Positions 3,326 to 26,600 of a DNA stretch of 64,000 bases are shown one piece after another. A model generated the notes under the pieces. It saw only the letters and a program-made list of their open reading frames with translations. It was not told the origin of the DNA and did no database searches. The stretch comes from Eledone cirrhosa. Taxonomy: Eukaryota. Each line of letters begins with the position of its first letter. Positions within the stretch are counted from its first letter, which is position 1. The stretch covers positions 9,300,001-9,364,000 of the forward strand of contig OZ024759.1 of NCBI GenBank assembly GCA_964016885.1. The letters are read 5' to 3'. The translations under genes were made by a program, and so were the position numbers.

Positions 3326-4362
3326 TCGGCATAATACTTGATATATAAGGATCACTAAACCTTATATCAGTGCTTCAGTAATTCCACAGTCTTGGTAATT
3401 GTTTTATTCTGAACATAATATTTACGGTAAAAAATGCTTGCATTTCCGCAGCATCTGTCGGTCGCCAAACAGATCGGGTTTTCCTTCAAATGTTTATAGT
3501 ATCTTTGAAGGCGTGTGGCTGAGTGGTTAGAGAATTGGATTCGCAATTGCGAGGCTGTGAGTTCGATTCCCGGACCAGGCGATAAGTTATGTCCTTGAGC
3601 AAGACACTTTCTTTCACATTGCTCCTTCTACCTGGAGTTGCAACCGATAGATAGTATTAGCAATTGGAAAGACTAATGGAAACTAGCTTCCTTGGTCCGA
3701 TTTGACGAAAGTCGATCGACTGTCGATAGTTTCTTTACAATTAGATAAACCATTGTGAGAATTTGCAGTATTACAGGAAAGTCTTTAATATTTATTGTCA
3801 TGAAGTCATAGTGTTGTTTTATACTTTTCAAAAATGTCTTGCTGATGTGATGCAGACATAGAATATCTTAACGCGGTTTGTTCATTCAAATGTCTATAGT
3901 ATCTTTACTAGGGGAAAGTACATTTTGAACATTTTCAATATTAGAGTAAAGACTTTAATTTTTAATGTGATATTTTTTTACTTTTCAAGAATATCTTGCT
4001 AATGCTGTTTAATATGGTACAGGATCTTAAAGTTAATTTAAATCTTTAGAATATCTTTAGTAGTGGACTGATCTTTGTGGAAATTTATAGTAGTAAAGTA
4101 AAGATTTCAATTTTGAATGTGATACAGCCATAGTGCTGTTTTATATTTTTCAACAATATCAACTATAAATGTGGTTGGTGTTAGGAAGAGCATCCAGCCA
4201 TAGAAACCAAGCCAGTAAGACATGGTCACCTGACCTGACTTGTCTCTAATGGGACAACTCATCTAACCAATGCTAGCATGAAAAAAATGGATGTTAAACA
4301 ATGATGATGATCTTGCTAATGTGGTTTCATGTGGTACAGGATGTTATGAATTAAAAAGTTAA

Positions 4363-4856
4363 CCCTTTAGCATTCACATTACTCTACATATACTATTATA
4401 TTTTCACAGTAAAGGCTTTACCTCACATAATATCTCACATAACATTTACATTACTCTATATATACTATTGTATTTTCACAGTAAAGGCTTTACCTCACAT
4501 AATATCTCACATAACATTTACATTACTCTATATATACTATTGTATTTTCACAGTAAAGGCTTTACCTCACATAATATCTCACATAACATTTACATTACTC
4601 TATATATACTATTGTATTTTCACAGTAAAGGCTTTACCTCACATAATATCTCACATAACATTTACATTACTCTATATATACTATTGTATTATCACAGTAA
4701 AGACTTTACCTCACATAATATCGAATCTATGAGATTTTGAAAGTATTTATTTTGAAAACAATACCTTAACATCAGTTTGAGCGACCGGTTACAGCCAGTT
4801 TCACAGAAACAGGTAGAGAATTCTGGCTGGTTTTGGCCGGTTTGAACATTAAAGGG
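4363..4856. mobile_element. piggyBac-like MITE containing a 72-bp internal tandem repeat
   Basis: TTAA|CCCTTTAGCATT...AACATTAAAGGG|TTAA (TTAA target duplication, CCC/GGG termini); related copies at about 9850-10045 (partial) and 30195-32276. Confidence 0.7.
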
Positions 4857-4894
4857 TTAAAGGAAAAAAGAAAGAATAACCATATCAGCCTTAC

Positions 4895-5040
4895 CTCAAA
4901 CTTGAAAGGTAATGGTTTATCAGGGGTTTGGTTTTTAGACGTATTTTGGTCAACTGGACAATGGTCTCTACATCCATTGACGAGGACTGGTCACAGTTGA
5001 GACACACGGACAGGAGCAGGTCTTGGGCTGATCTAGACAA
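4895..5040 (-). CDS. INTS1: INTS1 coding exon (LSRSAQDLLLSVCLNCDQSSSMDVETIVQLTKIRLKTKPLINHYLSSLR)
   Basis: attccAG acceptor, GTAAGG donor, 146 nt, phase 0/2; collinear with INTS1 LTRPAQDLLMSVCMNC...KIRLK. Confidence 0.93.
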
Positions 5041-5770
5041 CTGGAATACATGAGTGAGAGTGTAAGTGTGAGTGAGAGGTGACAGTTGAGACATAATAGA
5101 ATACAACAGGTCCAGGGCTGATCTGGACAACTGGAATACATGAGTGAGAGTGTGAGTGTGAGTGAGAGTGTGAGGTGACAGCTGAGACATAATAGAAGGC
5201 AGCAGGTCCAGGGCTGATCTGGACAACTGGAATACATGAGTGAGAGTGTGAGTGAGAGGTGACAGTTGAGACATAATGGAAGGGAGCAGGTCCAGGGCTG
5301 ATCTGGACAACTGGAATACATGAGTGAGAGTGAGAGTGTGAGTGAGAGGTGAGACATAATAGAAGGCAGCAGGTCCAGGGCTGATCTGGACAACTGGAAT
5401 ACATGAGTGAGAGTGTGAGTGAGAGGTGACAGTTGAGACACAATAGAAGGCAGCAGGTCCAGGGCTGATCTGGACAACTGGAATACATGAGTGAGAGTGT
5501 GAGTGAGAGTGTGAGGTGACAGTTGAGATATAAAAGAAGGCAGCAGGTCCAGGGCTGATCTGGACAACTGGAATACATGAGTGAGAGTGTGAGTGTGAGG
5601 TGACAGTTGAGACATAGAAGGCAGCAGGTCCAAGGCTGATCTGGACAACTGGAATACATGAGTGAGAGTGTGAGTGAGAGTGGGAGGTGACAGTTGAGAC
5701 ACAATAGAAGGCAGCAGGTCCAGGGCTGATCTGGACAACTGGAATCCATGAGTGAGAGTGTGAGTGTGGT
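5041..5770 (-). repeat. 81-96-bp tandem array made of the INTS1 3' splice site plus exon start (8 extra copies)
   Basis: Unit CATGTATTCCAG|TTGTCCAGATCAGCCCTGGACCTGCTG...TCTCAACTGT matches the real acceptor and first ~48 nt of exon 4895-5040. Confidence 0.92.
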
Positions 5771-5803
5771 ATCAAGAGGAGGGTCAACAGAGAAAGAACC
5801 AAC

Positions 5804-5990
5804 CTTTGGGTTTTGCAGCCACATTTCTAGGCGTTGTGCTGCAGTGAGTCGGATTTCTCCGGAGCCGCAGGTGACTGTCATCAGTCGGATCAGGTTACGA
5901 GTTGATCCATCCATGGGTTGACGTTTGTTCAGCTGTTCTCTCACAATTTCCAGGACATCTGATTCAATCATCTCTTGACGGTAGACATAC
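5804..5990 (-). CDS. INTS1: INTS1 coding exon (YVYRQEMIESDVLEIVREQLNKRQPMDGSTRNLIRLMTVTCGSGEIRLTAAQRLEMWLQNPK)
   Basis: acttgAG acceptor, GTTGGT donor, 187 nt, phase 2/0; LEMWLQNPK is an INTS1 motif. Confidence 0.93.
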
Positions 5991-6029
5991 CTCAAGTAAT
6001 GACATTCGTAAACAGATGGTAAATATCAT

Positions 6030-6480: not shown

Positions 6481-8144
6481 CAACATTACCTCACCTGAGA
6501 ATTATTGGACTCTCCCCTCTCCACCAACTTTATCCCACCTGGGAGTTATTGGAGAGTGATTAGACCCTGCCATCCACCCCAACATTACCTCACCTGAGAA
6601 TTATTGGACTCTCCCCTCTCCACCAACTTTATCCCACCTGGGAGTTATTGGAGAGTGATTAGACCCTGCCATCCACCCCAACATTACCTCACCTGAGAAT
6701 TATTGGACTCTCCCCTCTCCACCAACTTTATCCCACCTGGGAGTTATTGGAGAGTGATTAGACCCTGCCATCCACCCCAACATTACCTCACCTGAGAATT
6801 ATTGGACTCTCCCCTCTCCACCAACTTTATCCCACCTGGGAGTTATTGGAGAGTGATTAGACCCTGCCATCCACCCCAACATTACCTCACCTGAGAATTA
6901 TTGGACTCTCCCCTCTCCACCAACTTTATCCCACCTGGGAGTTATTGGAGAGTGATTAGACCCTGCCATCCACCCCAACATTACCTCACCTGAGAATTAT
7001 TGGACTCTCCCCTCTCCACCAACTTTATCCCACCTGGGAGTTATTGGAGAGTGATTAGACCCTGCCATCCACCCCAACATTACCTCACCTGAGAATTATT
7101 GGACTCTCCCCTCTCCACCAACTTTATCCCACCTGGGAGTTATTGGAGAGTGATTAGACCCTGCCATCCACCCCAACATTACCTCACCTGAGAATTATTG
7201 GACTCTCCCCTCTCCACCAACTTTATCCCACCTGGGAGTTATTGGAGAGTGATTAGACCCTGCCATCCACCCCAACATTACCTCATCTGAGAATTATTGG
7301 ACTCTCCCCTCTCCACCAACTTTATCCCACCTGGGAGTTATTGGAGAGTGATTAGACCCTGCCATCCACCCCAACATTACCTCACCTGAGAATTATTGGA
7401 CTCTCCCCTCTCCACCAACTTTATCCCACCTGGGAGTTATTGGAGAGTGATTAGACCCTGCCATCCACCCCAACATTACCTCACCTGAGAATTATTGGAC
7501 TCTCCCCTCTCCACCAACTTTATCCCACCTGGGAGTTATTGGAGAGTGATTAGACCCTGCCATCCACCCCAACATTACCTCACCTGAGAATTATTGGACT
7601 CTCCCCTCTCCACCAACTTTATCCCACCTGGGAGTTATTGGAGAGTGATTAGACCCTGCCATCCACCCCAACATTACCTCACCTGAGAATTATTGGACTC
7701 TCCCCTCTCCACCAACTTTATCCCACTTGGGAGTTATTGGAGAGTGATTAGACCCTGCCATCCACCCCAACATTACCTCACCTGAGAATTATTGGACTCT
7801 CCCCTCTCCACCAACTTTATCCCACCTGGGAGTTATTGGAGGGTGATTAGACCCTGCCATCCACCCCAACATTATCTCACCTAGGTATTATAAGACCCAC
7901 ACCTGCCCAACATTAATTATCTCACCTGGGAGTTATTGGAGGGTGATTAGACCCTGCCATCCACCCCAACATTATCTCACCTAGGTATTATAAGACCCAC
8001 ACCTGCCCAACATTAATTATCTCACCTGGGAGTTATTGGAGAGTGATTAGACCCTGCCATCCACCCCAACATTACCTCACCTAGGTATTATAAGACCCAC
8101 ACCTGCCCAACATTAATTATCTCACCTGGGAGTTATTGGAGAGT
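6481..8144 (-). repeat. 99/100-bp tandem array derived from an INTS1 exon 3' end and donor (about 14 + 2-3 units)
   Basis: Unit contains CTCTCCAATAACTCCCAG|GTG, identical to the end of exon 8126-8228; period 99 (6481, 6580, 6679) then 100 (7921, 8021, 8121). Confidence 0.92.
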
Positions 8145-8228
8145 TATCAGCCTCCCAGAAGCCAGGTTTGAAACTGTCACTGTCGATACTTTTGTCTTCT
8201 TCTTCACACACACTCAACGATGGACTTG
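8126..8228 (-). CDS. INTS1: INTS1 coding exon (SPSLSVCEEEDKSIDSDSFKPGFWEADNSPITPR)
   Basis: Long pyrimidine tract plus atcAG, GTGAGA donor, 103 nt, phase 1/2 fits both neighbours; aligns to INTS1 SPHPSLTEEED...MPR. Not in the ORF track. Confidence 0.85.
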
Positions 8229-9850: not shown

Positions 9851-10254
9851 ACATACTATTGTATTTTCACAGTAAATGCTTTATCTCACATAATTATCTC
9901 ACATAATATCGAATCTATGAGATTTTGAAAGTATTTATTTTGAGAACAATACCTTAACATCAATTTGAGCAACCAGTTACAGCCAGTTTCAACAGAAAGA
10001 AGTAGAGAATTCTTGTCGGTTTTGGCCGGTTTGAACATTAAAGGGTTAAACTGGAGTTTAGAATGTAACAAAAGTTCTTACATGAAATTATGACAGAAGC
10101 TTATTTTAGATAAACACCTAAACTTTTTTGTTAAGATATTTCTAATGTGGTTTCATATATTTCTGTTATTTAAATGTTTATATTATCTTTACTAGTGGAC
10201 AGATTGTTGTGAAAATTTACAGACGATGATGATGATGACGGTGATGATAGTAAA

Positions 10255-11832: not shown

Positions 11833-14800
11833 ACACCCCACCCTTCACCTATGTCCTACACCCCACCCTTTACCTATGTCCTACACTCAACCCTTCACCT
11901 ATGTCCTACACCCCACCCTTCACCTATGTCCTACACCCCACCCTTCACCTATGTCCTACACCCCACCCTTCACCTAAGTCCTACACCCCACCCTTCACCT
12001 ATATCCTACACCCCACCCTTCACCTATGTCCTACACTCAACCCTTCACCTATGTCCTATACGCCACCCTTCACCTATGTCCTACACTCAACCCTTCACCT
12101 ATGTCCTACACCCCACCCTTCACCTAAGTCCTACACTCAACCCTTCACCTATGTCCTACACCCCACCCTTCACCTATGTCCTACACCCCACCCTTCACCT
12201 ATGTCCTACACTCAACCCTTCACCTATGTCCTACACCCCACCCTTCACCTATGTCCTACACCCCACCCTTCACCTATGTCCTACACGCCACCCTTCACCT
12301 ATGTCCTACACCCCACCCTTCACCTATGTCCTACACCCCACCCTTCACCTATGTCCTACACCCCACCCTTCACCTATGTCCTACACCCCACACTTCACCT
12401 ATGTCCTACACGCCACCCTTCACCTATGTCCTACACCCCACCCTTCACCTATGTCCTACACCCCACCCTTCACCTATGTCCTACACCCCACCCTTCACCT
12501 ATGTCCTACACCCCACCCTTCACCTATGTCCTACACCCCACCCTTCACCTATGTCCTACACCCCACCCTTCCCCTATGTCCTACACCCCACCCTTCACCT
12601 ATGTCCTACACCCCACCCTTCACCTATGTCCTACACCCCACCCTTCACCTATGTCCTACACTCAACCCTTCACCTATGTCCTACACCCCACCCTTCACCT
12701 ATGTCCTACACCCCACCCTTCACCTATGTCCTACACCCCACCCTTCACCTATGTCCTATACGCCACCCTTCACCTATGTCCTATACCCCACCCTTCACCT
12801 ATGTCCTACACCCCATCCTTCACCTATGTCCTACACCCCACCCTTCACCTATGTCCTACACCCCACCCTTCACCTATGTCCTACACCCCACCCTTCACCC
12901 ATGTCCTACACTCAACCCTTCACCTATGTCCTACACTCAACCCTTCACCTATGTCCTACACCCCACCCTTCACCTATGTCCTACACCCCACCCTTCACCT
13001 ATGTCCTATACGCCACCCTTCACCTAAGTCCTACACTCAACCCTTCACCTATGTCCTACACCCAACCCTTCACCTATGTCCTACACCCCACCCTTCACCT
13101 ATATCCTACACCCCACCCTTCACCTATGTCCTACACTCAACCCTTCACCTATGTCCTACACCCCACCCTTCACCTATGTCCTACACTCAACCCTTCACCT
13201 ATGTCCTACACCCCACCCTTCACCTATGTCCTACACCCCACCCTTCACCTATATCCTACACCCCACCCTTCACCTATGTCCTACACTCAACCCTTCACCT
13301 ATGTCCTATACGCCACCCTTCACCTATGTCCTACACTCAACCCTTCACCTATGTCCTACACCCCACCCTTCACCTAAGTCCTACACTCAACCCTTCACCT
13401 ATGTCCTACACCCCACCCTTCACCTATGTCCTACACCCCACCCTTCACCTATGTCCTACACTCAACCCTTCACCTATGTCCTACACCCCACCCTTCAACT
13501 ATGTCCTACACCCCACCCTTCACCTATGTCCTATACGCCACCCTTCACCTATGTCCTACACCCCACCCTTCACCTATGTCCTACACCCCACCCTTCACCT
13601 ATGTCCTACACCCCACCCTTCACCTATGTCCTACACCCCACACTTCACCTATGTCCTACACGCCACCCTTCACCTATGTCCTACACCCCACCCTTCACCT
13701 ATGTCCTACACCCCACCCTTCACCTATGTCCTACACCCCACCCTTCACCTATGTCCTACACCCCACCCATCACCTATGTCCTATATGCCACCCTTCACCT
13801 ATGTCCTACACCCCACCCTTCACCTATGTCCTACACCCCACCCTTCACCTATGTCCTACACCCCACCCTTCACCTATGTCCTATACGCCACCCTTCACCT
13901 ATGTCCTATACCCCACCCTTCACCTATGTCCTACACCCCATCCTTCACCTATGTCCTACACCCCACCCTTCACCTATGTCCTACACCCCACCCTTCACCT
14001 ATGTCCTACACCCCACCCTTCACCTATGTCCTATACGCCACCCTTCACATATGTCCTACACTCAACCCTTCACCTATGTCCTACACCCCACCCTTCACCT
14101 ATGTCCTACACCCCACCCTTCACCTATGTCCTATACGCCACCCTTCACCTAAGTCCTACACTCAACCCTTCACCTATGTCCTACACCCCACCCTTCACCT
14201 ATGTCCTACACCCCACCCTTCACCTATGTCCTACACCCCACCCTTCACCTATGTCCTACACCCCACCCTTCACCTATGTCCTATACCCCACCCTTCACCT
14301 ATGTCCTACACCCCATCCTTCACCTATGTCCTACACCCCACCCTTCACCTATGTCCTATACGCCACCCTTCACCTATGTCCTATACCCCACCCTTCACCT
14401 ATGTCCTACACCCCACCCTTCACCTATGTCCTACACCCCACCCTTCACCTATGTCCTACACCCCACCCTTCACCTATGTCCTATACGCCACCCTTCACCT
14501 AAGTCCTACACTCAACCCTTCACCTATGTCCTACACCCCACCCTTCACCTATGTCCTACACTCAACCCTTCACCTATGTCCTACACCCCACCCTTCACCT
14601 ATGTCCTACACTCAACCCTTCACCTATGTCCTACACCCCACCCTTCACCTATGTCCTACACCCCACCCTTCACCTATGTCCTATACCCCACCCTTCACCT
14701 ATGTCCTACACCCCATCCTTCACCTATGTCCTACACCCCACCCTTCACCTATGTCCTATACCCCACCCTTCACCTATGTCCTACACCCCACCCTTCACCT

Positions 14801-17800
14801 ATGTCCTACACCCCACCCTTCACCTATGTCCTACACCCCACCCTTCACCTATGTCCTATACTCAACCCTTCACCTATGTCCTACACCCCACCCTTCACCT
14901 ATGTCCTCCTACACCCCACCCTTCACCTATGTCCTACACCCCACCCTTCACCTATGTCCTACACCCCACCCTTCACCTATGTCCTACACTCAACCCTTCA
15001 CCTATGTCCTACACCCCACCCTTCACCTATGTCCTACACCCCACCCTTCACCTATGTCCTACACCCCACCCTTCACCTATGTCCTACACTCAACCCTTCA
15101 CCTATGTCCTACACCCCACCCTTCACCTATGTCCTCCTACACCCCACCCTTCACCTATGTCCTACACTCAACCCTTCACCTATGTCCTCCTACACCCCAC
15201 CCTTCACCTATGTCCTACACCCCACCCTTCACCTATGTCCTACACCCCACCCTTCACCTATGTCCTATACGCCACCCTTCACCTAAGTCCTACACTCAAC
15301 CCTTCACCTATGTCCTACACCCCACCCTTCACCTATGTCCTACACTCAACCCTTCACCTATGTCCTACACCCCACCCTTCACCTATGTCCTACACTCAAC
15401 CCTTCACCTATGTCCTATACCCCACCCTTCACCTATGTCCTACACCCCATCCTTCACCTATGTCCTACACCCCACCCTTCACCTATGTCCTATACCCCAC
15501 CCTTCACCTATGTCCTACACCCCACCCTTCACCTATGTCCTACACCCCACCCTTCACCTATGTCCTACACCCCACCCTTCACCTATGTCCTATACTCAAC
15601 CCTTCACCTATGTCCTACACCCCACCCTTCACCTATGTCCTACACTCAACCCTTCACCTATGTCCTCCTACACCCCACCCTTCACCTATGTCCTACACCC
15701 CACCCTTCACCTATGTCCTATACGCCACCCTTCACCTAAGTCCTACACTCAACCCTTCACCTATGTCCTACACCCCACCCTTCACCTATGTCCTACACTC
15801 AACCCTTCACCTATGTCCTACACCCCACCCTTCACCTATGTCCTACACCCCACCCTTCACCTATGTCCTATACCCCACCCTTCACCTATGTCCTACACCC
15901 CATCCTTCACCTATGTCCTACACCCCACCCTTCACCTATGTCCTATACCCCACCCTTCACCTATGTCCTACACCCCACCCTTCACCTATGTCCTACACCC
16001 CACCCTTCACCTATGTCCTACACCCCACCCTTCACCTATGTCCTACACTCAACCCTTCACCTATGTCCTACACCCCACCCTTCACCTATGTCCTACACTC
16101 AACCCTTCACCTATGTCCTACACCCCACCCTTCACCTATGTCCTACACCCCACCCTTCACCTATGTCCTATACCCCACCCTTCACCTATGTCCTACACCC
16201 CACCCTTCACCTATGTCCTCCTACACCCCACCCTTCACCTATGTCCTACACTCAACCCTTCACCTATGTCCTACACCCCACCCTTCACCTATGTCCTACA
16301 CTCAACCCTTCACCTATGTCCTACACCCCACCCTTCACCTATGTCCTCCTACACCCCACCCTTCACCTATGTCCTACACTCAACCCTTCACCTATGTCCT
16401 ACACCCCACCCTTCACCTATGTCCTACACTCAACCCTTCACCTATGTCCTCCTACACCCCACCCTTCACCTATGTCCTACACTCAACCCTTCACCTATGT
16501 CCTCCTACACCCCACCCTTCACCTATGTCCTACACCCCACCCTTCACCTATGTCCTACACTCAACCCTTCACCTATGTCCTCCTACACCCCACCCTTCAC
16601 CTATGTCCTACACCCCACCCTTCACCTATGTCCTACACTCAACCCTTCACCTATGTCCTCCTACACCCCACCCTTCACCTATGTCCTACACTCAACCCTT
16701 CACCTATGTCCTCCTACACCCCACGCTTCACCTATGTCCTCCATTCAACCCTTCACCTATATCCTACACCCCACCCTTCACCTATATCCTACACCCCACC
16801 CTTCACCTATGTCCTACACTCAACCCTTCACCTATGTCCTACACCCCACCCTTCACCTATGTCCTCCTACACCCCACCCTTCACCTATGTCCTCCACTCA
16901 ACCCTTCACCTATATCCTACACCCCACCCTTCACCTATATCCTACACCCCACCCTTCACCTATGTCCTACACTCAACCCTTCACCTATGTCCTACACCCC
17001 ACCCTTCACCTATGTCCTACACCCCACCTTTCACCTATGTCCTACACTCAACCCTTCACCTATGTCCTACACTCAACCCTTCACCTATGTCCTACACCCC
17101 ACCCTTCACTCAACCCTTCACCTATGTCCTATACGCCACCCTTCACCTATGTCCTACACTCAACCCTTCACCTATGTCCTATACGCCACCCTTCACCTAT
17201 GTCCTACACCCCACCCTTCACCTATGTCCTACACTCAACCCTTCACCTATGTCCTACACCCCACCCTATGTCCTACACCCCACCCTATGTCCTACACCCC
17301 ACCCTTCACCTATGTCCTACACTCAACCCTTCACCTATGTCCTATACGCCACCCTTCACCTATGTCCTACACCCCACCCTTCACCTATGTCCTACACTCA
17401 ACCCTTCACCTATGTTCTACACGCCACCCTTCACCTATATCCTACACCCCACCCTTCACCTATATCCTACACCCTACCCTTCACCTATGTCCTACACCCC
17501 ACCCTTCACCTATGTCCTACACTCAACCCTTCACCTATGTGCTATACGCCACCCTTCACCTATGTCCTCCTACACCCCACTCTTCACCTATGTCCTACAC
17601 CCCACCCTTCACCTATGTCCTACACTCAACCCTTCACCTATGTCCTACACTCAACCCTTCACCTATGTCCTCCTACACCCCACCCTTCACCTATGTCCTA
17701 CACTCAACCCTTCACCTATGTCCTACACTCAACCCTTCACCTATGTCCTACACCCCACCCTTCACCTATGTCCTCCACTCAACCCTTCACCTATATCCTA

Positions 17801-20622
17801 CACCCCACCCTTCACCTATATCCTACACCCCACCCTTCACCTATGTCCTACACTCAACCCTTCACCTATGTCCTACACCCCACCCTTCACCTATGTCCTA
17901 CACCCCACCTTTCACCTATGTCCTACACTCAACCCTTCACCTATGTCCTACACTCAACCCTTCACCTATGTCCTACACCTCACCCTTCACTCAACCCTTC
18001 ACCTATGTCCTATACGCCACCCTTCACCTATGTCCTACACTCAACCCTTCACCTATGTCCTATACGCCACCCTTCACCTATGTCCTACATCCCACCCTTC
18101 ACCTATGTCCTACACTCAACCCTTCACCTATGTCCTACACCCCACCCTATGTCCTACACCCCACCCTTCACCTATGTCCTACACTCAACCCTTCACCTAT
18201 GTCCTATACGCCACCCTTCACCTATGTCCTACACCCCACCCTTCACCTATGTCCTACACCCCACCCTTCACCTATGTCCTACACCCCACCCTTCACCTAT
18301 GTCCTACACTCAACCCTTCACCTATGTCCTACACGCCACCCTTCACCTATATCCTACACCCTACCCTTCACCTATGTCCTACACCCCACCCTTCACCTAT
18401 GTCCTACACTCAACCCTTCACCTATGTCCTACACTCAACCCTTCACCTATGTCCTATACGCCACCCTTCACCTATGTCCTATACGCCACCCTTCACCTAT
18501 GTCCTACACTCAACCCTTCACCTATGTCCTACACTCAACCCTTCACCTATATCCTACACTCAACCCTTCACCTATGTCCTACACTCAACCCTTCACCTAT
18601 GTCCTACACTCAACCCTTCACCTATGTCCTACACCCCACCTTTCACCTATGTCCTACACTCAACCCTTCACCTATGTCCTACACTCAACCCTTCACCTAT
18701 GTCCTATACGCCACCCTTCACCTATGTCCTATACGCCACCCTTCACCTATGTCCTACACTCAACCCTTCACCTATGTCCTATACGCCACCCTTCACCTAT
18801 CTCCTACACCCCACCCTTCACCTATGTCCTACACTCCACCCTTCACCTATGTCCTACACTCCACCCTTCACCTATGTCCTACACTCAACCCTTCCCCTAT
18901 GTCCTACACTCCACCCTTCACCTATGTCCTACACTCAACCCTTCACCTATGTCCTACACCCCACCCTTCACCTATGTCCTACACCCCACCCTTCACCTAT
19001 ATCCTACACTCCACCCTTCACCTGTCCTATACGCCACCCTTCACCTATGTCCTACATCCCACCCTTCACCTATGTCCTACACTCAACCCTTCACCTATGT
19101 CCTACACTCAACCCTTCATCTATGTCCTCCTACACCCCACCCTTCACCTATGTCCTACACCCCACCCTTCACCTATGTCCTACACTCAACCCTTCACCTA
19201 TGTCCTACACTCAACCCTTCACCTATGTCCTCCTACACCCCACCCTTCACCTATGTCCTACACTCAACCCTTCACCTATGTCCTACACCCCACACTTCAC
19301 CTATGTCCTACACTCAACCCTTCACCTATATCCTACACCCCACCCTTCACCTATATCCTACACCCCACCCTTCACCTATGTCCTACACTCAACCCTTCAC
19401 CTATGTCCTACACCCCACCCTTCACCTATGTCCTACACCCCACCTTCACCTATGTCCTACACTCAACCCTTCACCTATGTCCTACACTCAACCCTTCACC
19501 TATGTCCTACACCCCACCCTTCACTCAACCCTTCACCTATGTCCTATACGCCACCCTTCACCTATGTCCTACACTCAACCCTTCACCTATGTCCTATATG
19601 CCACCCTTCACCTATGTCCTACACCCCACCCTTCACCTATGTCCTACACTCAACCCTTCACCTATGTCCTACACCCCACCCTATGTCCTACACCCCACCC
19701 TTCACCTATGTCCTACACTCAACCCTTCACCTATGTCCTATACGCCACCCTTCACCTATGTCCTACACCCCACCCTTCACCTATGTCCTACACCCCACCC
19801 TTCACCTATGCCCTACACTCAACCCTTCACCTATGTTCTACACGCCACCCTTCACCTATATCCTACACCCCACCCTTCACCTATATCCTACACCCTACCC
19901 TTCACCTATGTCCTACACCCCACCCTTCACCTATGTCCTACACTCAACCCTTCACCTATGTCCTACACTCAACCCTTCACCTATGTGCTATACGCCACCC
20001 TTCACCTATGGCCTATACGCCACCCTTCACCTATGTCCTACACTCAACCCTTCACCTATGTCCTACACTCAACCCTTCACCTATATCCTACACTCAACCT
20101 TTCACCTATGTCCTACACTCAACCCTTCACCTATGTCCTACACTCAACCCTTCACCTATGTCCTACACCCCACCCTTCACCTATGTCCTACACTCAACCC
20201 TTCAACTATGTCCTACACTCAACCCTTCACCTATGTCCTATACGCCACCCTTCACCTATGTCCTATACGCCACCCTTCACCTATGTCCTACACTCAACCC
20301 TTCACCTATGTCCTATACGCCACCCTTCACCTATGTCCTACACCCCACCCTTCACCTATGTCCTACACTCAACCCTTCACCTATGTCCTACACTACACCC
20401 TTCACCTATGTCCTACACTCCACCCTTCACCTATGTCCTACACTCAACCCTTCCCCTATGTCCTACACTCCACCCTTCACCTATGTCCTACACTCAACCC
20501 TTCACCTATGTCCTACACCCCACCCTTCACCTATGTCCTACACCCCACCCTTCACCTATATCCTACACTCCACCCTTCACCTATGTCCTATACCCCACCC
20601 TTCCCCTATGTCCTACACTCAC
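11833..20622. repeat. 25-bp intronic minisatellite (CACCCTTCACCTATGTCCTACACCC)n, about 350 copies
   Basis: Uninterrupted 8.8-kb array; the stop-free unit yields the spurious giant ORFs in all three + frames. Confidence 0.97.
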
Positions 20623-21231: not shown

Positions 21232-21366
21232 CTAAATAAATATATAAGGATATATAGACAGAGTCAAACATTAACTGAATCAGCACTCAATACATGTGAG
21301 CATGGTATTAAAATTTATTTTTTGTGTGTATATATTCTTTCATCCTTCCTCAACAAATGCCCCAAC

Positions 21367-24300
21367 CATCACAGGCTCTACTCCGCTCACCCAGCCACTT
21401 TCACCTACAACACATGACTTAACCATCTCATTCCATTTCTCTTCACAACATTCATCACAGGCTCTACTCCTCTCACCCAGTCACTTTCATCTACAACACA
21501 TGACTTAACCATCTCATTCCATTTCTCTTCACAACATCCATCACAGGCTCTACTCCGCTCACCCAGCCACTTTCACCTACAACACATGACTTAACCATCT
21601 CATTCCATTTCTCTTCACAACATTCATCACAGGCTCTACTCCTCTCACCCAGTCACTTTCATCTACAACACATGACTTAACCATCTCATTCCATTTCTCT
21701 TCACAACATTCATCACAGGCTCTACACCGCTCACCCAGCCACTTTCACCTACAACACATGACTTAACCATCTCATTCCATTTCTCTTCACAACAACCATC
21801 ACAGGCTCTACTCCGCTCACCCAGTCACTTTCATCTACAACACATGACTTAACCATCTCATTCCATTTCTCTTCACAACAACCATCACAGGCTCTACTCC
21901 GCTCCCCCAGTCACTTTCACCTACAACACATGACTTAACCATCTCATTCCATTTCTCTTCACAACATTCACCACAGGCTCTACTCCGCTCCCCCAGTCAC
22001 TTTCACCTACAACACATGACTTATCTCATTCCATTTCTCTTCACAACAACCATCACAGGCTCTACTCCGCTCACCCAGTCACTTTCACCTACAACACATG
22101 ACTTAACCATCTCATTCCATTTCTCTTCACAACATTCACCACAGGCTCTACTCCGCTCCCCCAGTCACTTTCACCTACAACACATGACTTATCTCATTCC
22201 ATTTCTCTTCACAACAACCATCACAGGCTCTACTCCGCTCACCCAGTCACTTTCACCTACAACACATGACTTAACCATCTCATTCATTCCATTTCTCTTC
22301 ACAACAACCATCACAGGCTCTACTCCGCTCAACCAGTCACTTTCATCTACAACACATGACTTAACCATCTCATTCCATTTCTCTTCACAACATTCATCAC
22401 AGGCTCTACTCCTCTCACCCAGTCACTTTCATCTACAACACATGACTTATCCATCTCATTCCATTTCTCTTCACAACATCCATCACAGGCTCTACTCCTC
22501 TCACCCAGTCACTTTCACCTACAACACATGACTTAACCATCTCATTCCATTTCTCTTCACAACATCCATCACAGGCTCTACTCCGCTCACCCAGCCACTT
22601 TCACCTACAACACATGACTTAACCATCTCATTCTATTTCTCTTCACAACATCCATCACAGGCTCTACTCCTCTCACCCAGTCACTTTCACCTACAACACA
22701 TGACTTAACCATCTCATTCTATTTCCCTTCACAACATTCATCACAGGCTCTACTCCTCTCACCCAGTCACTTTCACCTACAACACATGACTTAACCATCT
22801 CATTCTATTTCTCTTCACAACAACCATCACAGGCTCTAGTCCGCTCCCCCAGTCACTTTCACCTACAACACATGACTTAACCATCTCATTCTATTTCTCT
22901 TCACAACATCCATCACAGGCTCTACTCCTCTCACCCAGTCACTTTCACCTACAACACATGACTTAACCATCTCATTCCATTTCCCTTCACAACATTCATC
23001 ACAGGCTCTACTCCTCTCACCCAGTCACTTTCACCTACAACACATGACTTAACCATCTCATTCCATTTCTCTTCACAACATCCATCACAGGCTCTACTCC
23101 GCTCACCCAGCCACTTTCACCTACAACACATGACTTAACCATCTCATTCTATTTCCCTTCACAACATTCATCACAGGCTCTACTCCTCTCACCCAGTCAC
23201 TTTCACCTACAACACATGACTTAACCATCTCATTCTATTTCTCTTCACAACAACCATCACAGGCTCTAGTCCGCTCCCCCAGTCACTTTCACCTACAACA
23301 CATGACTTAACCATCTCATTCTATTTCTCTTCACAACATCCATCACAGGCTCTACTCCTCTCACCCAGTCACTTTCACCTACAACACATGACTTAACCAT
23401 CTCATTCCATTTCCCTTCACAACATTCATCACAGGCTCTACTCCTCTCACCCAGTCACTTTCACCTACAACACATGACTTAACCATCTCATTCTATTTCT
23501 CTTCACAACAACCATCACAGGCTCTAGTCCGCTCCCCCAGTCACTTTCACCTACAACACATGACTTAACCATCTCATTCTATTTCTCTTCACAACATCCA
23601 TCACAGGCTCTACTCCTCTCACCCAGTCACTTTCACCTACAACACATGACTTAACCATCTCATTCCATTTCCCTTCACAACATTCATCACAGGCTCTACT
23701 CCTCTCACCCAGTCACTTTCACCTACAACACATGACTTAACCATCTCATTCTATTTCTCTTCACAACAACCATCACAGGCTCTAGTCCGCTCCCCCAGTC
23801 ACTTTCACCTACAACACATGACTTAACCATCTCATTCTATTTCTCTTCACAACATCCATCACAGGCTCTACTCCTCTCACCCAGTCACTTTCACCTACAA
23901 CACATGACTTAACCATCTCATTCTATTTCCCTTCACAACATTCATCACAGGCTCTACTCCTCTCACCCAGTCACTTTCACCTACAACACATGACTTAACC
24001 ATCTCATTCTATTTCTCTTCACAACAACCATCACAGGCTCTAGTCCGCTCCCCCAGTCACTTTCACCTACAACACATGACTTAACCATCTCATTCTATTT
24101 CTCTTCACAACATCCATCACAGGCTCTACTCCTCTCACCCAGTCACTTTCATCTACAACACATGACTTAACCATCTCATTCCATTTCTCTTCACAACATT
24201 CATCACAGGCTCTACTCCGCTCCCCCAGTCACTTTCATCTACAATACATGACTTAACCATCTCATTCCATTTCTCTTCACAACATTCATCACAGGCTCTA

Positions 24301-26447
24301 CTCCGCTCCCCCAGTCACTTTCATCTACAATACATGACTTAACCATCTCATTCTATTTCTCTTCACAACATCCATCACAGGCTCTACTCCTCTCACCCAG
24401 TCACTTTCATCTACAACACATGACTTAACCATCTCATTCCATTTCTCTTCACAACATTCATCACAGGCTCTACTCCGCTCCCCCAGTCACTTTCATCTAC
24501 AACACATGACTTAACCATCTCATTCCATTTCTCTTCACAACATTCATCACAGGCTCTACTCCGCTCCCCCAGTCACTTTCATCTACAATACATGACTTAA
24601 CCATCTCATTCCATTTCTCTTCACAACAACCATCACAGGCTCTACTCCGCTCACCCAGTCATTTTAACTACAACACATGACTTAACCATCTCATTCCATT
24701 TCTCTTCACAACATTCATCACAGGCTCTACTCCTCTCCCCCAGTCACTTTCACCTACAACACATGACTTAACCATCTCATTCCATTTCTCTTCACAACAT
24801 TCATCACAGGCTCTACTCCTCTCCCCCAGTCACTTTCACCTACAACACATGACTTAACCATCTCATTCCATTTCTCTTCACAACAACCATCACAGGCTCT
24901 ACTCCTCTCACCCAGTCACTTTCATCTACAACACATGACTTAACCATCTCATTCCATTTCTCTTCACAACATTCATCACAGGCTCTACTCCTCTCACCCA
25001 GTCACTTTCACCTACAACACATGACTTAACCATCTCATTCCATTTCTCTTCACAACATCCATCACAGGCTCTACTCCGCTCACCCAGTCACTTTCATCTA
25101 CAACACATGACTTAACCATCTCATTCCATTTCTCTTCACAACAACCATCACAGGCTCTACTCCGCTCACCCAGTCATTTTAACTACAACACATGACTTAA
25201 CCATCTCATTCCATTTCTCTTCACAACATTCATCACAGGCTCTACTCCTCTCCCCCAGTCACTTTCACCTACAACACATGACTTAACCATCTCATTCCAT
25301 TTCTCTTCACAACATTCATCACAGGCTCTACTCCTCTCCCCCAGTCACTTTCACCTACAACACATGACTTAACCATCTCATTCCATTTCTCTTCACAACA
25401 ACCATCACAGGCTCTACTCCTCTCACCCAGTCACTTTCATCTACAACACATGACTTAACCATCTCATTCCATTTCTCTTCACAACATTCATCACAGGCTC
25501 TACTCCTCTCACCCAGTCACTTTCACCTACAACACATGACTTAACCATCTCATTCCATTTCTCTTCACAACATCCATCACAGGCTCTACTCCGCTCACCC
25601 AGTCACTTTCATCTACAACACATGACTTAACCATCTCATTCCATTTCTCTTCACAACAACCATCACAGGCTCTACTCCGCTCACCCAGTTACTTTCATCT
25701 ACAACACATGACTTAACCATCTCATTCCATTTCTCTTCACAACAACCATCACAGGCTCTACTCCGCTCACCCAGTCACTTTCACCTACAACACATGACTT
25801 AACCATCTCATTCCATTTCTCTTCACAACAACCATCACAGGCTCTACTCCTCTCACCCAGTCACTTTCATCTACAACACATGACTTAACCATCTCATTCC
25901 ATTTCTCTTCACAACAACCATCACAGGCTCTACTCCGCTCACCCAGTCACTTTCACCTACAACACATGACTTAACCATCTCATTCCATTTCTCTTCACAA
26001 CATTCATCACAGGCTCTACTCCTCTCACCCAGTCACTTTCAACTACAACACATGACTTAACCATCTCATTCCATTTCTCTTCACAACATTCATCACAGGC
26101 TCTACTCCGCTCCCCCAGTCACTTTCATCTACAACACATGACTTAACCATCTCATTCCATTTCTCTTCACAACATTCATCACAGGCTCTACTCCGCTCCC
26201 CCAGTCACTTTCATCTACAACACATGACTTAACCATCTCATTCCATTTCTCTTCACAACATTCATCACAGGCTCTACTCCGCTCCCCCAGTCACTTTCAC
26301 CTACAACACATGACTTAACCATCTCATTCCATTTCCCTTCACAACATTCATCACTGGCTCTACTCCGCTCCCCCAGTCACTTTCACCTACAACACATGAC
26401 TTAACCATCTCATTCCATTTCTCTTCACAACATTCATCACTGGCTCT
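21367..26447. repeat. 86-bp intronic satellite, about 59 copies
   Basis: CATCACAGGCTCTACTCCGCTCACCCAGTCACTTTCACCTACAACACATGACTTAACCATCTCATTCCATTTCTCTTCACAACATT, period 86. Confidence 0.96.
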
Positions 26448-26600
26448 ATTCCCACCATTTTCGGCAATTCATTGTTTGTCCACCCCTCTCTCTCTCTGCC
26501 CCAGCATGGCCACAATCTCATTGGTTGGAACAGATAAAAGAGTAAATGAGAAAACAAACAAACAAAAAAGCCAGGTAAATCCTGTTAAGAGTTAACCTAC

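Follow-up and report, generated by a model that had tools for sequence, protein, structure and literature searches.

An INTS1 intron of Eledone cirrhosa built largely from tandem copies of its own 3' splice junction

Results

Anatomy of the array-bearing intron

The window analysed here is a stretch of 64,000 nucleotides (nt) from Eledone cirrhosa (assembly GCA_964016885.1, contig OZ024759.1, positions 9,300,001 to 9,364,000 of the forward strand), and coordinates refer to this window unless they carry the prefix C20. On its minus strand lie two coding exons of INTS1, identified by their matches to positions 1 to 57 and 59 to 104 of the Pfam family INTS1_RP2B-bd (PF12432); the matches of this family in the species' own genome are confined to the INTS1 locus (three exon matches). 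The intron between them (5041 to 5803, minus strand, 763 nt, with donor GTTGGT at 5803) carries an array that TRF places at 4989 to 5768, with a period of 90, 8.9 copies, 85% matches and a score of 1112, far over chance. A motif made up of the acceptor and the exon start occurs nine times on the minus strand, with exon starts, in transcription order, at 5738, 5648, 5567, 5477, 5393, 5310, 5226, 5130 and 5040 and spacings of 90, 81, 90, 84, 83, 84, 96 and 90 nt. We could thus reproduce from the sequence the original prediction that eight decoy acceptors, the first of them 65 nt from the donor, precede the true one at 5040. The array is a tandem repeat whose unit spans the exon-intron boundary of its host gene, and it is of local origin and confined to a single locus; a search of the own genome with the array returned one full match, the remaining 16 matches being 33 to 59 nt of its hexamer tract.

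The features of the intron and its two exons are given below, read from the sequence unless another basis is named; X4 and X1 are sequencing runs that are described with the splicing results.

5804 to 5990, minus strand: INTS1 coding exon 5' of the array, 187 nt, ending at donor GTTGGT (PF12432 positions 1 to 57; contained without mismatch in the spliced X4 contig)
5041 to 5803, minus strand: intron, 763 nt, nearly all tandem array (from the motif positions; skipped in the X4 contig)
5739 to 5803, minus strand: first 65 nt of the intron, with the donor, about 20 nt of unique sequence and the first acceptor copy, which has one change at -8 relative to the others
5649 to 5738, minus strand: decoy unit 1, 90 nt, comprising a diverged exon start (about 50 nt), the hexamer tract and the acceptor; +2 frame if used
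5568 to 5648, minus strand: decoy unit 2, 81 nt, with a 3-nt deletion and a private change at +16; +2 frame (variants also in X1 contigs)
5478 to 5567, minus strand: decoy unit 3, 90 nt; +2 frame
5394 to 5477, minus strand: decoy unit 4, 84 nt; +2 frame
5311 to 5393, minus strand: decoy unit 5, 83 nt, with a 7-nt deletion that is the source of the frameshift of decoys 1 to 5 (deletion also in an X1 contig of depth 7)
5227 to 5310, minus strand: decoy unit 6, 84 nt; in frame, +90 amino acids (aa), would give a 416-nt exon
5131 to 5226, minus strand: decoy unit 7, 96 nt; in frame, its use would add 62 aa and produce a 332-nt exon
5041 to 5130, minus strand: decoy unit 8, 90 nt, the edge unit of the array and the most diverged one; in frame, its use would add 30 aa and produce a 236-nt exon
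4895 to 5040, minus strand: true INTS1 exon, 146 nt (Pfam positions 59 to 104; agreement with the residues conserved in orthologues after LQNPK; spliced to 5804 in X4)

The segment from 5739 to 5803 is probably close to the ancestral short intron. The acceptor of the upstream exon (5991 to 6010, minus strand) is itself unusual, with GAG, a poor pyrimidine tract and the lowest of 38 scores, yet it is used in X4; in a relative (run X6), the same site has a normal pyrimidine tract.

The decoys had been described as near-perfect copies, a description that holds for the intron side but not for the exon side. The last 20 intron bases of seven of the eight decoys are identical to those of the true acceptor, and TTCCAG is present at all eight, so that the AG signal is kept and each decoy is a potential cryptic site. 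Beyond the junction, all eight decoys share differences from the true exon at +6, +17 and +18, and they have additional changes as well as one extra base around +27 to +38. Over a core of 46 nt, the decoys differ from one another at 0 to 2 positions and from the true copy at 3 to 4, and the unit at 5130 shows 4 to 8 mismatches to the other units, which show 0 to 6 among themselves. As judged from these counts, the array is subject to concerted evolution, with the edge unit the most diverged, as in the amphioxus gene BflGb6 (see Discussion). Most of the 23 long orthologous proteins printed read L-x-R-x-A-Q-D/E-L-L after the junction, mostly LTRPAQDLLMSVCxNC or near; the copy at 5040 encodes LSRSAQDLLLSVCLNC, and the decoys encode LSRSALDLLPS, in which the conserved Gln after the junction is changed to L.

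The acceptors at 5130, 5226 and 5310 are in frame and stop-free, adding 30, 62 and 90 aa, respectively, and use of any of the five upstream decoys would produce a +2 shift that runs into a stop within the true exon, exactly the division into three proximal and five distal decoys that had been proposed. All five frameshifts go back to the 7-nt deletion in the single 83-nt unit, and the other changes in unit length are hexamer steps and one 3-nt loss, which agrees with the earlier suggestion that hexamer slippage lies behind the multiples of 3. The 698-nt array contains no TAA, TAG or TGA in any frame, and the stop-freeness of the in-frame decoys is therefore compositional. Since, in addition, one deletion sets five frames and slippage mostly proceeds by hexamers, the frame pattern says little about selection, and we rejected selection for frame or for stop-freeness. 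An array that is open in three frames may be mis-called as coding and is therefore an annotation hazard.

Splicing across the array

Contigs of four runs were mapped on positions 5649 to 6025, a region that takes in the upstream exon, the first part of the intron and a single decoy unit. One run, X4, was taken to be RNA, given that both ends of its contig are spliced. In this contig (2,232 nt, depth 11.9), 5804 is joined straight to the exon at 5040, with the private letters of the true exon present, and at its other loose end the contig continues into the upstream exon, which terminates at its first donor. It is the sole X4 record on 5649 to 6025 and the only spliced contig found; no X4 contig on a decoy unit was found in this mapping, in which contigs of a depth of about 12 may have dropped minor forms. 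A decoy contig of X4 would have been caught, because an X1 contig of the true exon and the neighbouring unit did map there. Because contigs drop rare variants, the result describes the dominant form and not an absence of leakage; for that form, in this one run, normal mRNA splicing is undisturbed by the array. The sole spliced contig thus bears out the proposal that the spliceosome skips the decoys. As far as one contig set shows, junctions use 5040 alone, the outcome that the original prediction had set against itself in advance.

The two consequences proposed for the array, insertion isoforms and dosage control coupled to NMD, found no support, in that no X4 contig lies on a decoy unit, minor forms being beyond contigs of this depth. 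A regulatory array of this kind would use its in-frame decoys to produce INTS1 isoforms longer by 30, 62 or 90 aa, or its frameshifting decoys to tune dosage through NMD, with copy number as the dial. The three decoys nearest the true exon are indeed in frame and stop-free, exons of 236 and 332 nt would be of usable size, and VNTRs are reported, in excerpts of PMC5954066 and PMC10078293, to alter splicing in humans. However, stop-freeness has a compositional origin here and the frame split stems from one deletion, as set out above, and any insert would land in the conserved Pfam RP2B-binding domain. In addition, the insert-plus-exon frame found no protein match among 776 candidates of 75 to 242 aa, a weak argument, as the true exon part was likewise unmatched. 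Together with the missing decoy contig in X4, these points make a regulatory array improbable in our judgement.

We also considered the decoy units as mini-exons of 72 to 87 nt, running from AG to an internal CAT/GTATTC donor, which would represent an early stage of the mirage route to intron gain, a model proposed in PMC3087553 (available text). Each unit does have a GT near its end, and seven of the eight such pieces are divisible by three, but the internal donor is weak, with no G at -1 or +5, and no mini-exon was seen in X4; we give this reading very little credence.

A mis-assembly could also have enlarged a short intron; the whole stretch is spanned by no listed contig, and X1, a DNA run, may be the source sample of the assembly. 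On the other hand, the differences of the units from one another and from the true exon are shared and non-random, and X1 contigs show the 7-nt deletion (depth 7), 3-nt deletions (depth 14.5) and private single-unit substitutions (depth 7 to 10). The array is real and its unit variants are genuine, although X1 provides no piece that spans the array for a copy number; an assembly artefact is unlikely, indeed scarcely credible, and largely refuted. As for relatives, run X5 gave only 31-nt matches to the hexamer tract and run X6 only the upstream exon, at 88% identity, and no look-alike of the array was found among the windows scanned.

Minisatellites across INTS1

INTS1 was mapped with five long homologues over C20:9178363-9333424 (155 kb), using 200 kb fetched downstream, and arrays with a period of at least 15 and at least three copies were collected and merged. 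The gene span holds 53 merged minisatellite arrays, which cover 58% of it. Splice sites were called by a heuristic, with 38 of 40 exons covered; putative junction arrays at 9203894 and 9208464 proved to be wrong site calls when the sequence was read and were dropped. Four of the 53 arrays span a junction, namely, the acceptor array described above and three donor arrays, in which the extra copies number 15, 17 and at least 9, and two single duplications also copy a junction. The donor arrays and the exon belonging to the first of them are as follows.

6481 to 8144, minus strand: donor array (a donor mirage) in the neighbouring intron, 99-nt unit, about 17 copies, with 15 copies of the upstream exon end and donor (TRF and sequence; X4 uses the first donor)
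8126 to 8228, minus strand: INTS1 exon whose donor seeded the 99-nt array (sequence; the X4 contig has the end of this exon as its loose end on the upstream side)
C20:9296487-9297287: donor array, 17 extra copies of exon end and GTTTGT donor (sequence)
C20:9180001-9181937: donor array with a 160-nt unit in about 10 copies; every copy has some 55 nt of exon end, the GTAAGG donor and some 100 nt of intron, and closely matches the true junction (sequence)

Under a chance model with uniform seeding on the collapsed gene, which is crude and relies on the heuristic splice sites, 2.1 to 3.6 junction arrays are expected and the probability of four or more is 0.17 to 0.48. Enrichment of arrays at splice sites is not supported by these figures; they suggest that junction arrays arise at chance rate and are not strongly purged. 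In the flanks of 60 kinase and DEAD loci used as controls, a small sample, repeats were far sparser than in INTS1, making up 2.3% in the 27 loci on C1 to C6 and 7.6% in the 33 loci on C7 and later. At none of the 60 loci did an array come within 30 nt of where a match ended, which gives no estimate of a rate, as many exons are long and match ends are inexact.

In the 160-nt array, nine copies carry the true donor, and the predicted fold over 30 nt on either side is the same in the seven copies listed. Because these copies equal the true donor in both sequence and predicted fold, masking would not generally be needed in INTS1, and position alone would have to be able to select sites in this gene.

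Several other elements were observed along the gene. A single copy of an intron end with about 65 nt of exon start (C20:9230150-9230350) lies upstream of the true exon at 9228568, at a distance of 1.65 kb, and is followed by GT, making it a possible pseudo-exon, and a two-copy 103-nt duplication at C20:9253750-9253940 repeats a likely GTCAGT donor. An element with inverted ends TTAA-CCCTT around a 72-nt tandem repeat is present at 4359 to 4860 and 9860 to 10050 and recurs several times in INTS1; we take it to resemble a piggyBac-type MITE. Two intronic minisatellites, at 11833 to 20618 (25 nt, 351 copies) and 21366 to 26452 (86 nt, 59 copies), are rich in AG/GTGA on the transcribed strand and are not copies of INTS1 junctions.

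Choice of the last acceptor

The reading we favour, with a probability of roughly 0.74, is that the array is a real minisatellite with eight copies of its own 3' splice junction, of which the spliced contig found uses the last copy only, and that it is a neutral by-product of heavy local repeat expansion. It may have originated in a once-short intron when about 40 nt from the intron end and about 50 nt from the exon start were duplicated in tandem; the decoys would then have multiplied and become homogenised, and coding constraint would have preserved the last copy. Because the last 20 nt of the intron are the same in seven of the eight decoys, the choice of site must come from exon sequence, structure or distance. 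Exon definition would pair the downstream donor at 4894 with the nearest acceptor; the exon measures 146 nt from 5040 and 236 to 844 nt from the decoys. The decoys may further be disfavoured by their purine-poor downstream sequence (the purine fraction over 80 nt after the acceptor is 0.44 in the true exon and about 0.30 in the decoys) and by the lack of a good donor of their own, and a predicted hairpin over the decoy exon start might assist. A distinguishing branch point was considered and rejected, CTCAC-type candidates being present in all units. Any rare use of decoys 1 to 5 would lead to premature stops and thereby to removal by NMD.

Choice of the exon-proximal 3' site under exon definition has been described for long-intron settings (PMC9225289, available text), but according to section 9 of the same paper, a short intron before a long one tends to intron definition, with the upstream 3' site preferred. 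Because splicing to decoy 1 would create an intron of 65 nt ahead of a long one and so fall into this short/long class, plain exon definition is not guaranteed, and we would count this setting as the main point against it. Three further points weigh against the neutral reading as a whole: the RNA side is one contig set from one run of inferred kind, in which rare forms are dropped, the shared changes, which are predicted to stabilise a hairpin, hint at selection to silence the decoys, and the chance model for junction arrays is crude.

5718 to 5736, minus strand: predicted 6-bp hairpin at +3 to +21 of decoy 1, in the same place in all eight decoys and imperfect in the true exon (prediction; z-scores of -0.3 to -1.3)

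According to this structural alternative, once the first duplication had taken place, the copy gained changes through which its exon start, joined in most units by its CAG, folds into a hairpin, and amplification then became tolerable; the array would then be a passenger with a selected self-silencing step. The three shared changes within +1 to +26 all fall in the stem and complete its 6 bp. The predicted ensemble energy is -10.7 to -13.7 kcal/mol in the decoys versus -4.8 kcal/mol at the true site, and the changes at +6, +17 and +18 alone take it from -4.8 to -10.9 kcal/mol, a gain of about 6 that 2.3% of 3,000 random three-change sets reach. The CAG is predicted to be unpaired at 0.01 to 0.04 in seven of the eight decoys versus 0.31 at the true site, and the first decoy sits just where intron definition could favour its use. 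However, the test was post hoc, the shuffle z-scores are only -0.3 to -1.3, and the three changes alone would leave the CAG as open as at the true site (0.28), a value that 22% of the random sets reach. Moreover, the CAG of the decoy at 5310 is also predicted to be that open (0.28), 5 of 30 true INTS1 acceptors are predicted to be equally paired, and the donor arrays in INTS1 do without consistent masking. Template switching that perfects a near-palindrome produces the same pattern without selection, which counts against a selected hairpin. Our literature search found no paper on hairpin-masked decoys in minisatellites. We regard the predicted hairpin over the decoy exon starts as a weak, post hoc lead. 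In its full form, the idea holds that acceptor mirages survive only after self-silencing. The three shared changes and a fourth would bury the decoy CAG, and a 65-nt intron, in which the first decoy should have been preferred under intron definition, could then expand to an array of eight acceptors even though the gene is essential; we consider this unlikely.

Discussion

The neutral reading places the INTS1 array in a known class, that of the "mirage" or of "exon stuttering," and the array is probably neutral (statements on published systems here follow the available text of the papers cited). Mirages have been described in amphioxus in the globin gene BflGb6 and in Adh3, troponin C and PGBD5 (PMC3087553, PMC3902484). 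The BflGb6 mirage has the same build as the INTS1 array, being composed of minisatellite-like tandem copies of the intron 3' end and the 5' part of the next exon; it comprises three to six units with 81 to 100% identity and shows concerted evolution from which edge units are excluded, and RT-PCR showed normal splicing (PMC3087553). Apart from phylum and gene, the INTS1 array differs from the amphioxus mirages in its shorter units (81 to 96 nt versus 150 to 160 nt) and in that AG is kept in all eight decoys.

On avian dot chromosomes, local tandem repeats of unrelated sequence fill the introns, and in 190 of 5,572 dot introns (3.4%) such a repeat copies the edge of an exon along with the adjoining splice site, donor or acceptor (PMC12954441). 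Similarly, INTS1 has four junction arrays in about 39 introns and combines heavily repeat-covered introns (58%) with intact exons; its contig, C20, is small, at 37 Mb. The bird chromosomes, in contrast, are GC-rich and individual length variation is central there (PMC12954441), whereas the window studied here is mostly 25 to 50% GC.

Two human genes provide further parallels. In CBS, the 844ins68 allele duplicates an intron/exon junction, and the distal copy is used, as in INTS1, with normal mRNA as the outcome; it is a single 68-bp duplication, unlike the eight-acceptor array, and the same gene has a 31-bp VNTR made up of 24 exon and 7 intron bases in 16 to 21 copies (PMC2630376). The 37-bp VNTR in intron 7 of F7 is a junction-spanning minisatellite with silent pseudo-sites and a direct analogue of the three INTS1 donor arrays (PMC1557585). 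Being a donor array, it has its site choice explained by a first-come scan, a mechanism that cannot be transferred to the INTS1 acceptors because there the last copy must win.

We found no paper on such arrays in cephalopods, and a paper on Octopus vulgaris repeats (PMC13282606) does not treat them in its available text. The INTS1 array thus adds to the known mirages a case from a core gene of an invertebrate for which we found none in print, and it offers a natural experiment on how the last of many near-identical 3' splice sites gets chosen. If self-silencing were confirmed, this array, together with the stuttering introns of small octopod chromosomes, would be a natural test bed for last-site choice. 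With 58% minisatellite, one acceptor array, three donor arrays and two single duplications, INTS1 suggests that sequence stuttering of the bird type extends beyond vertebrates.
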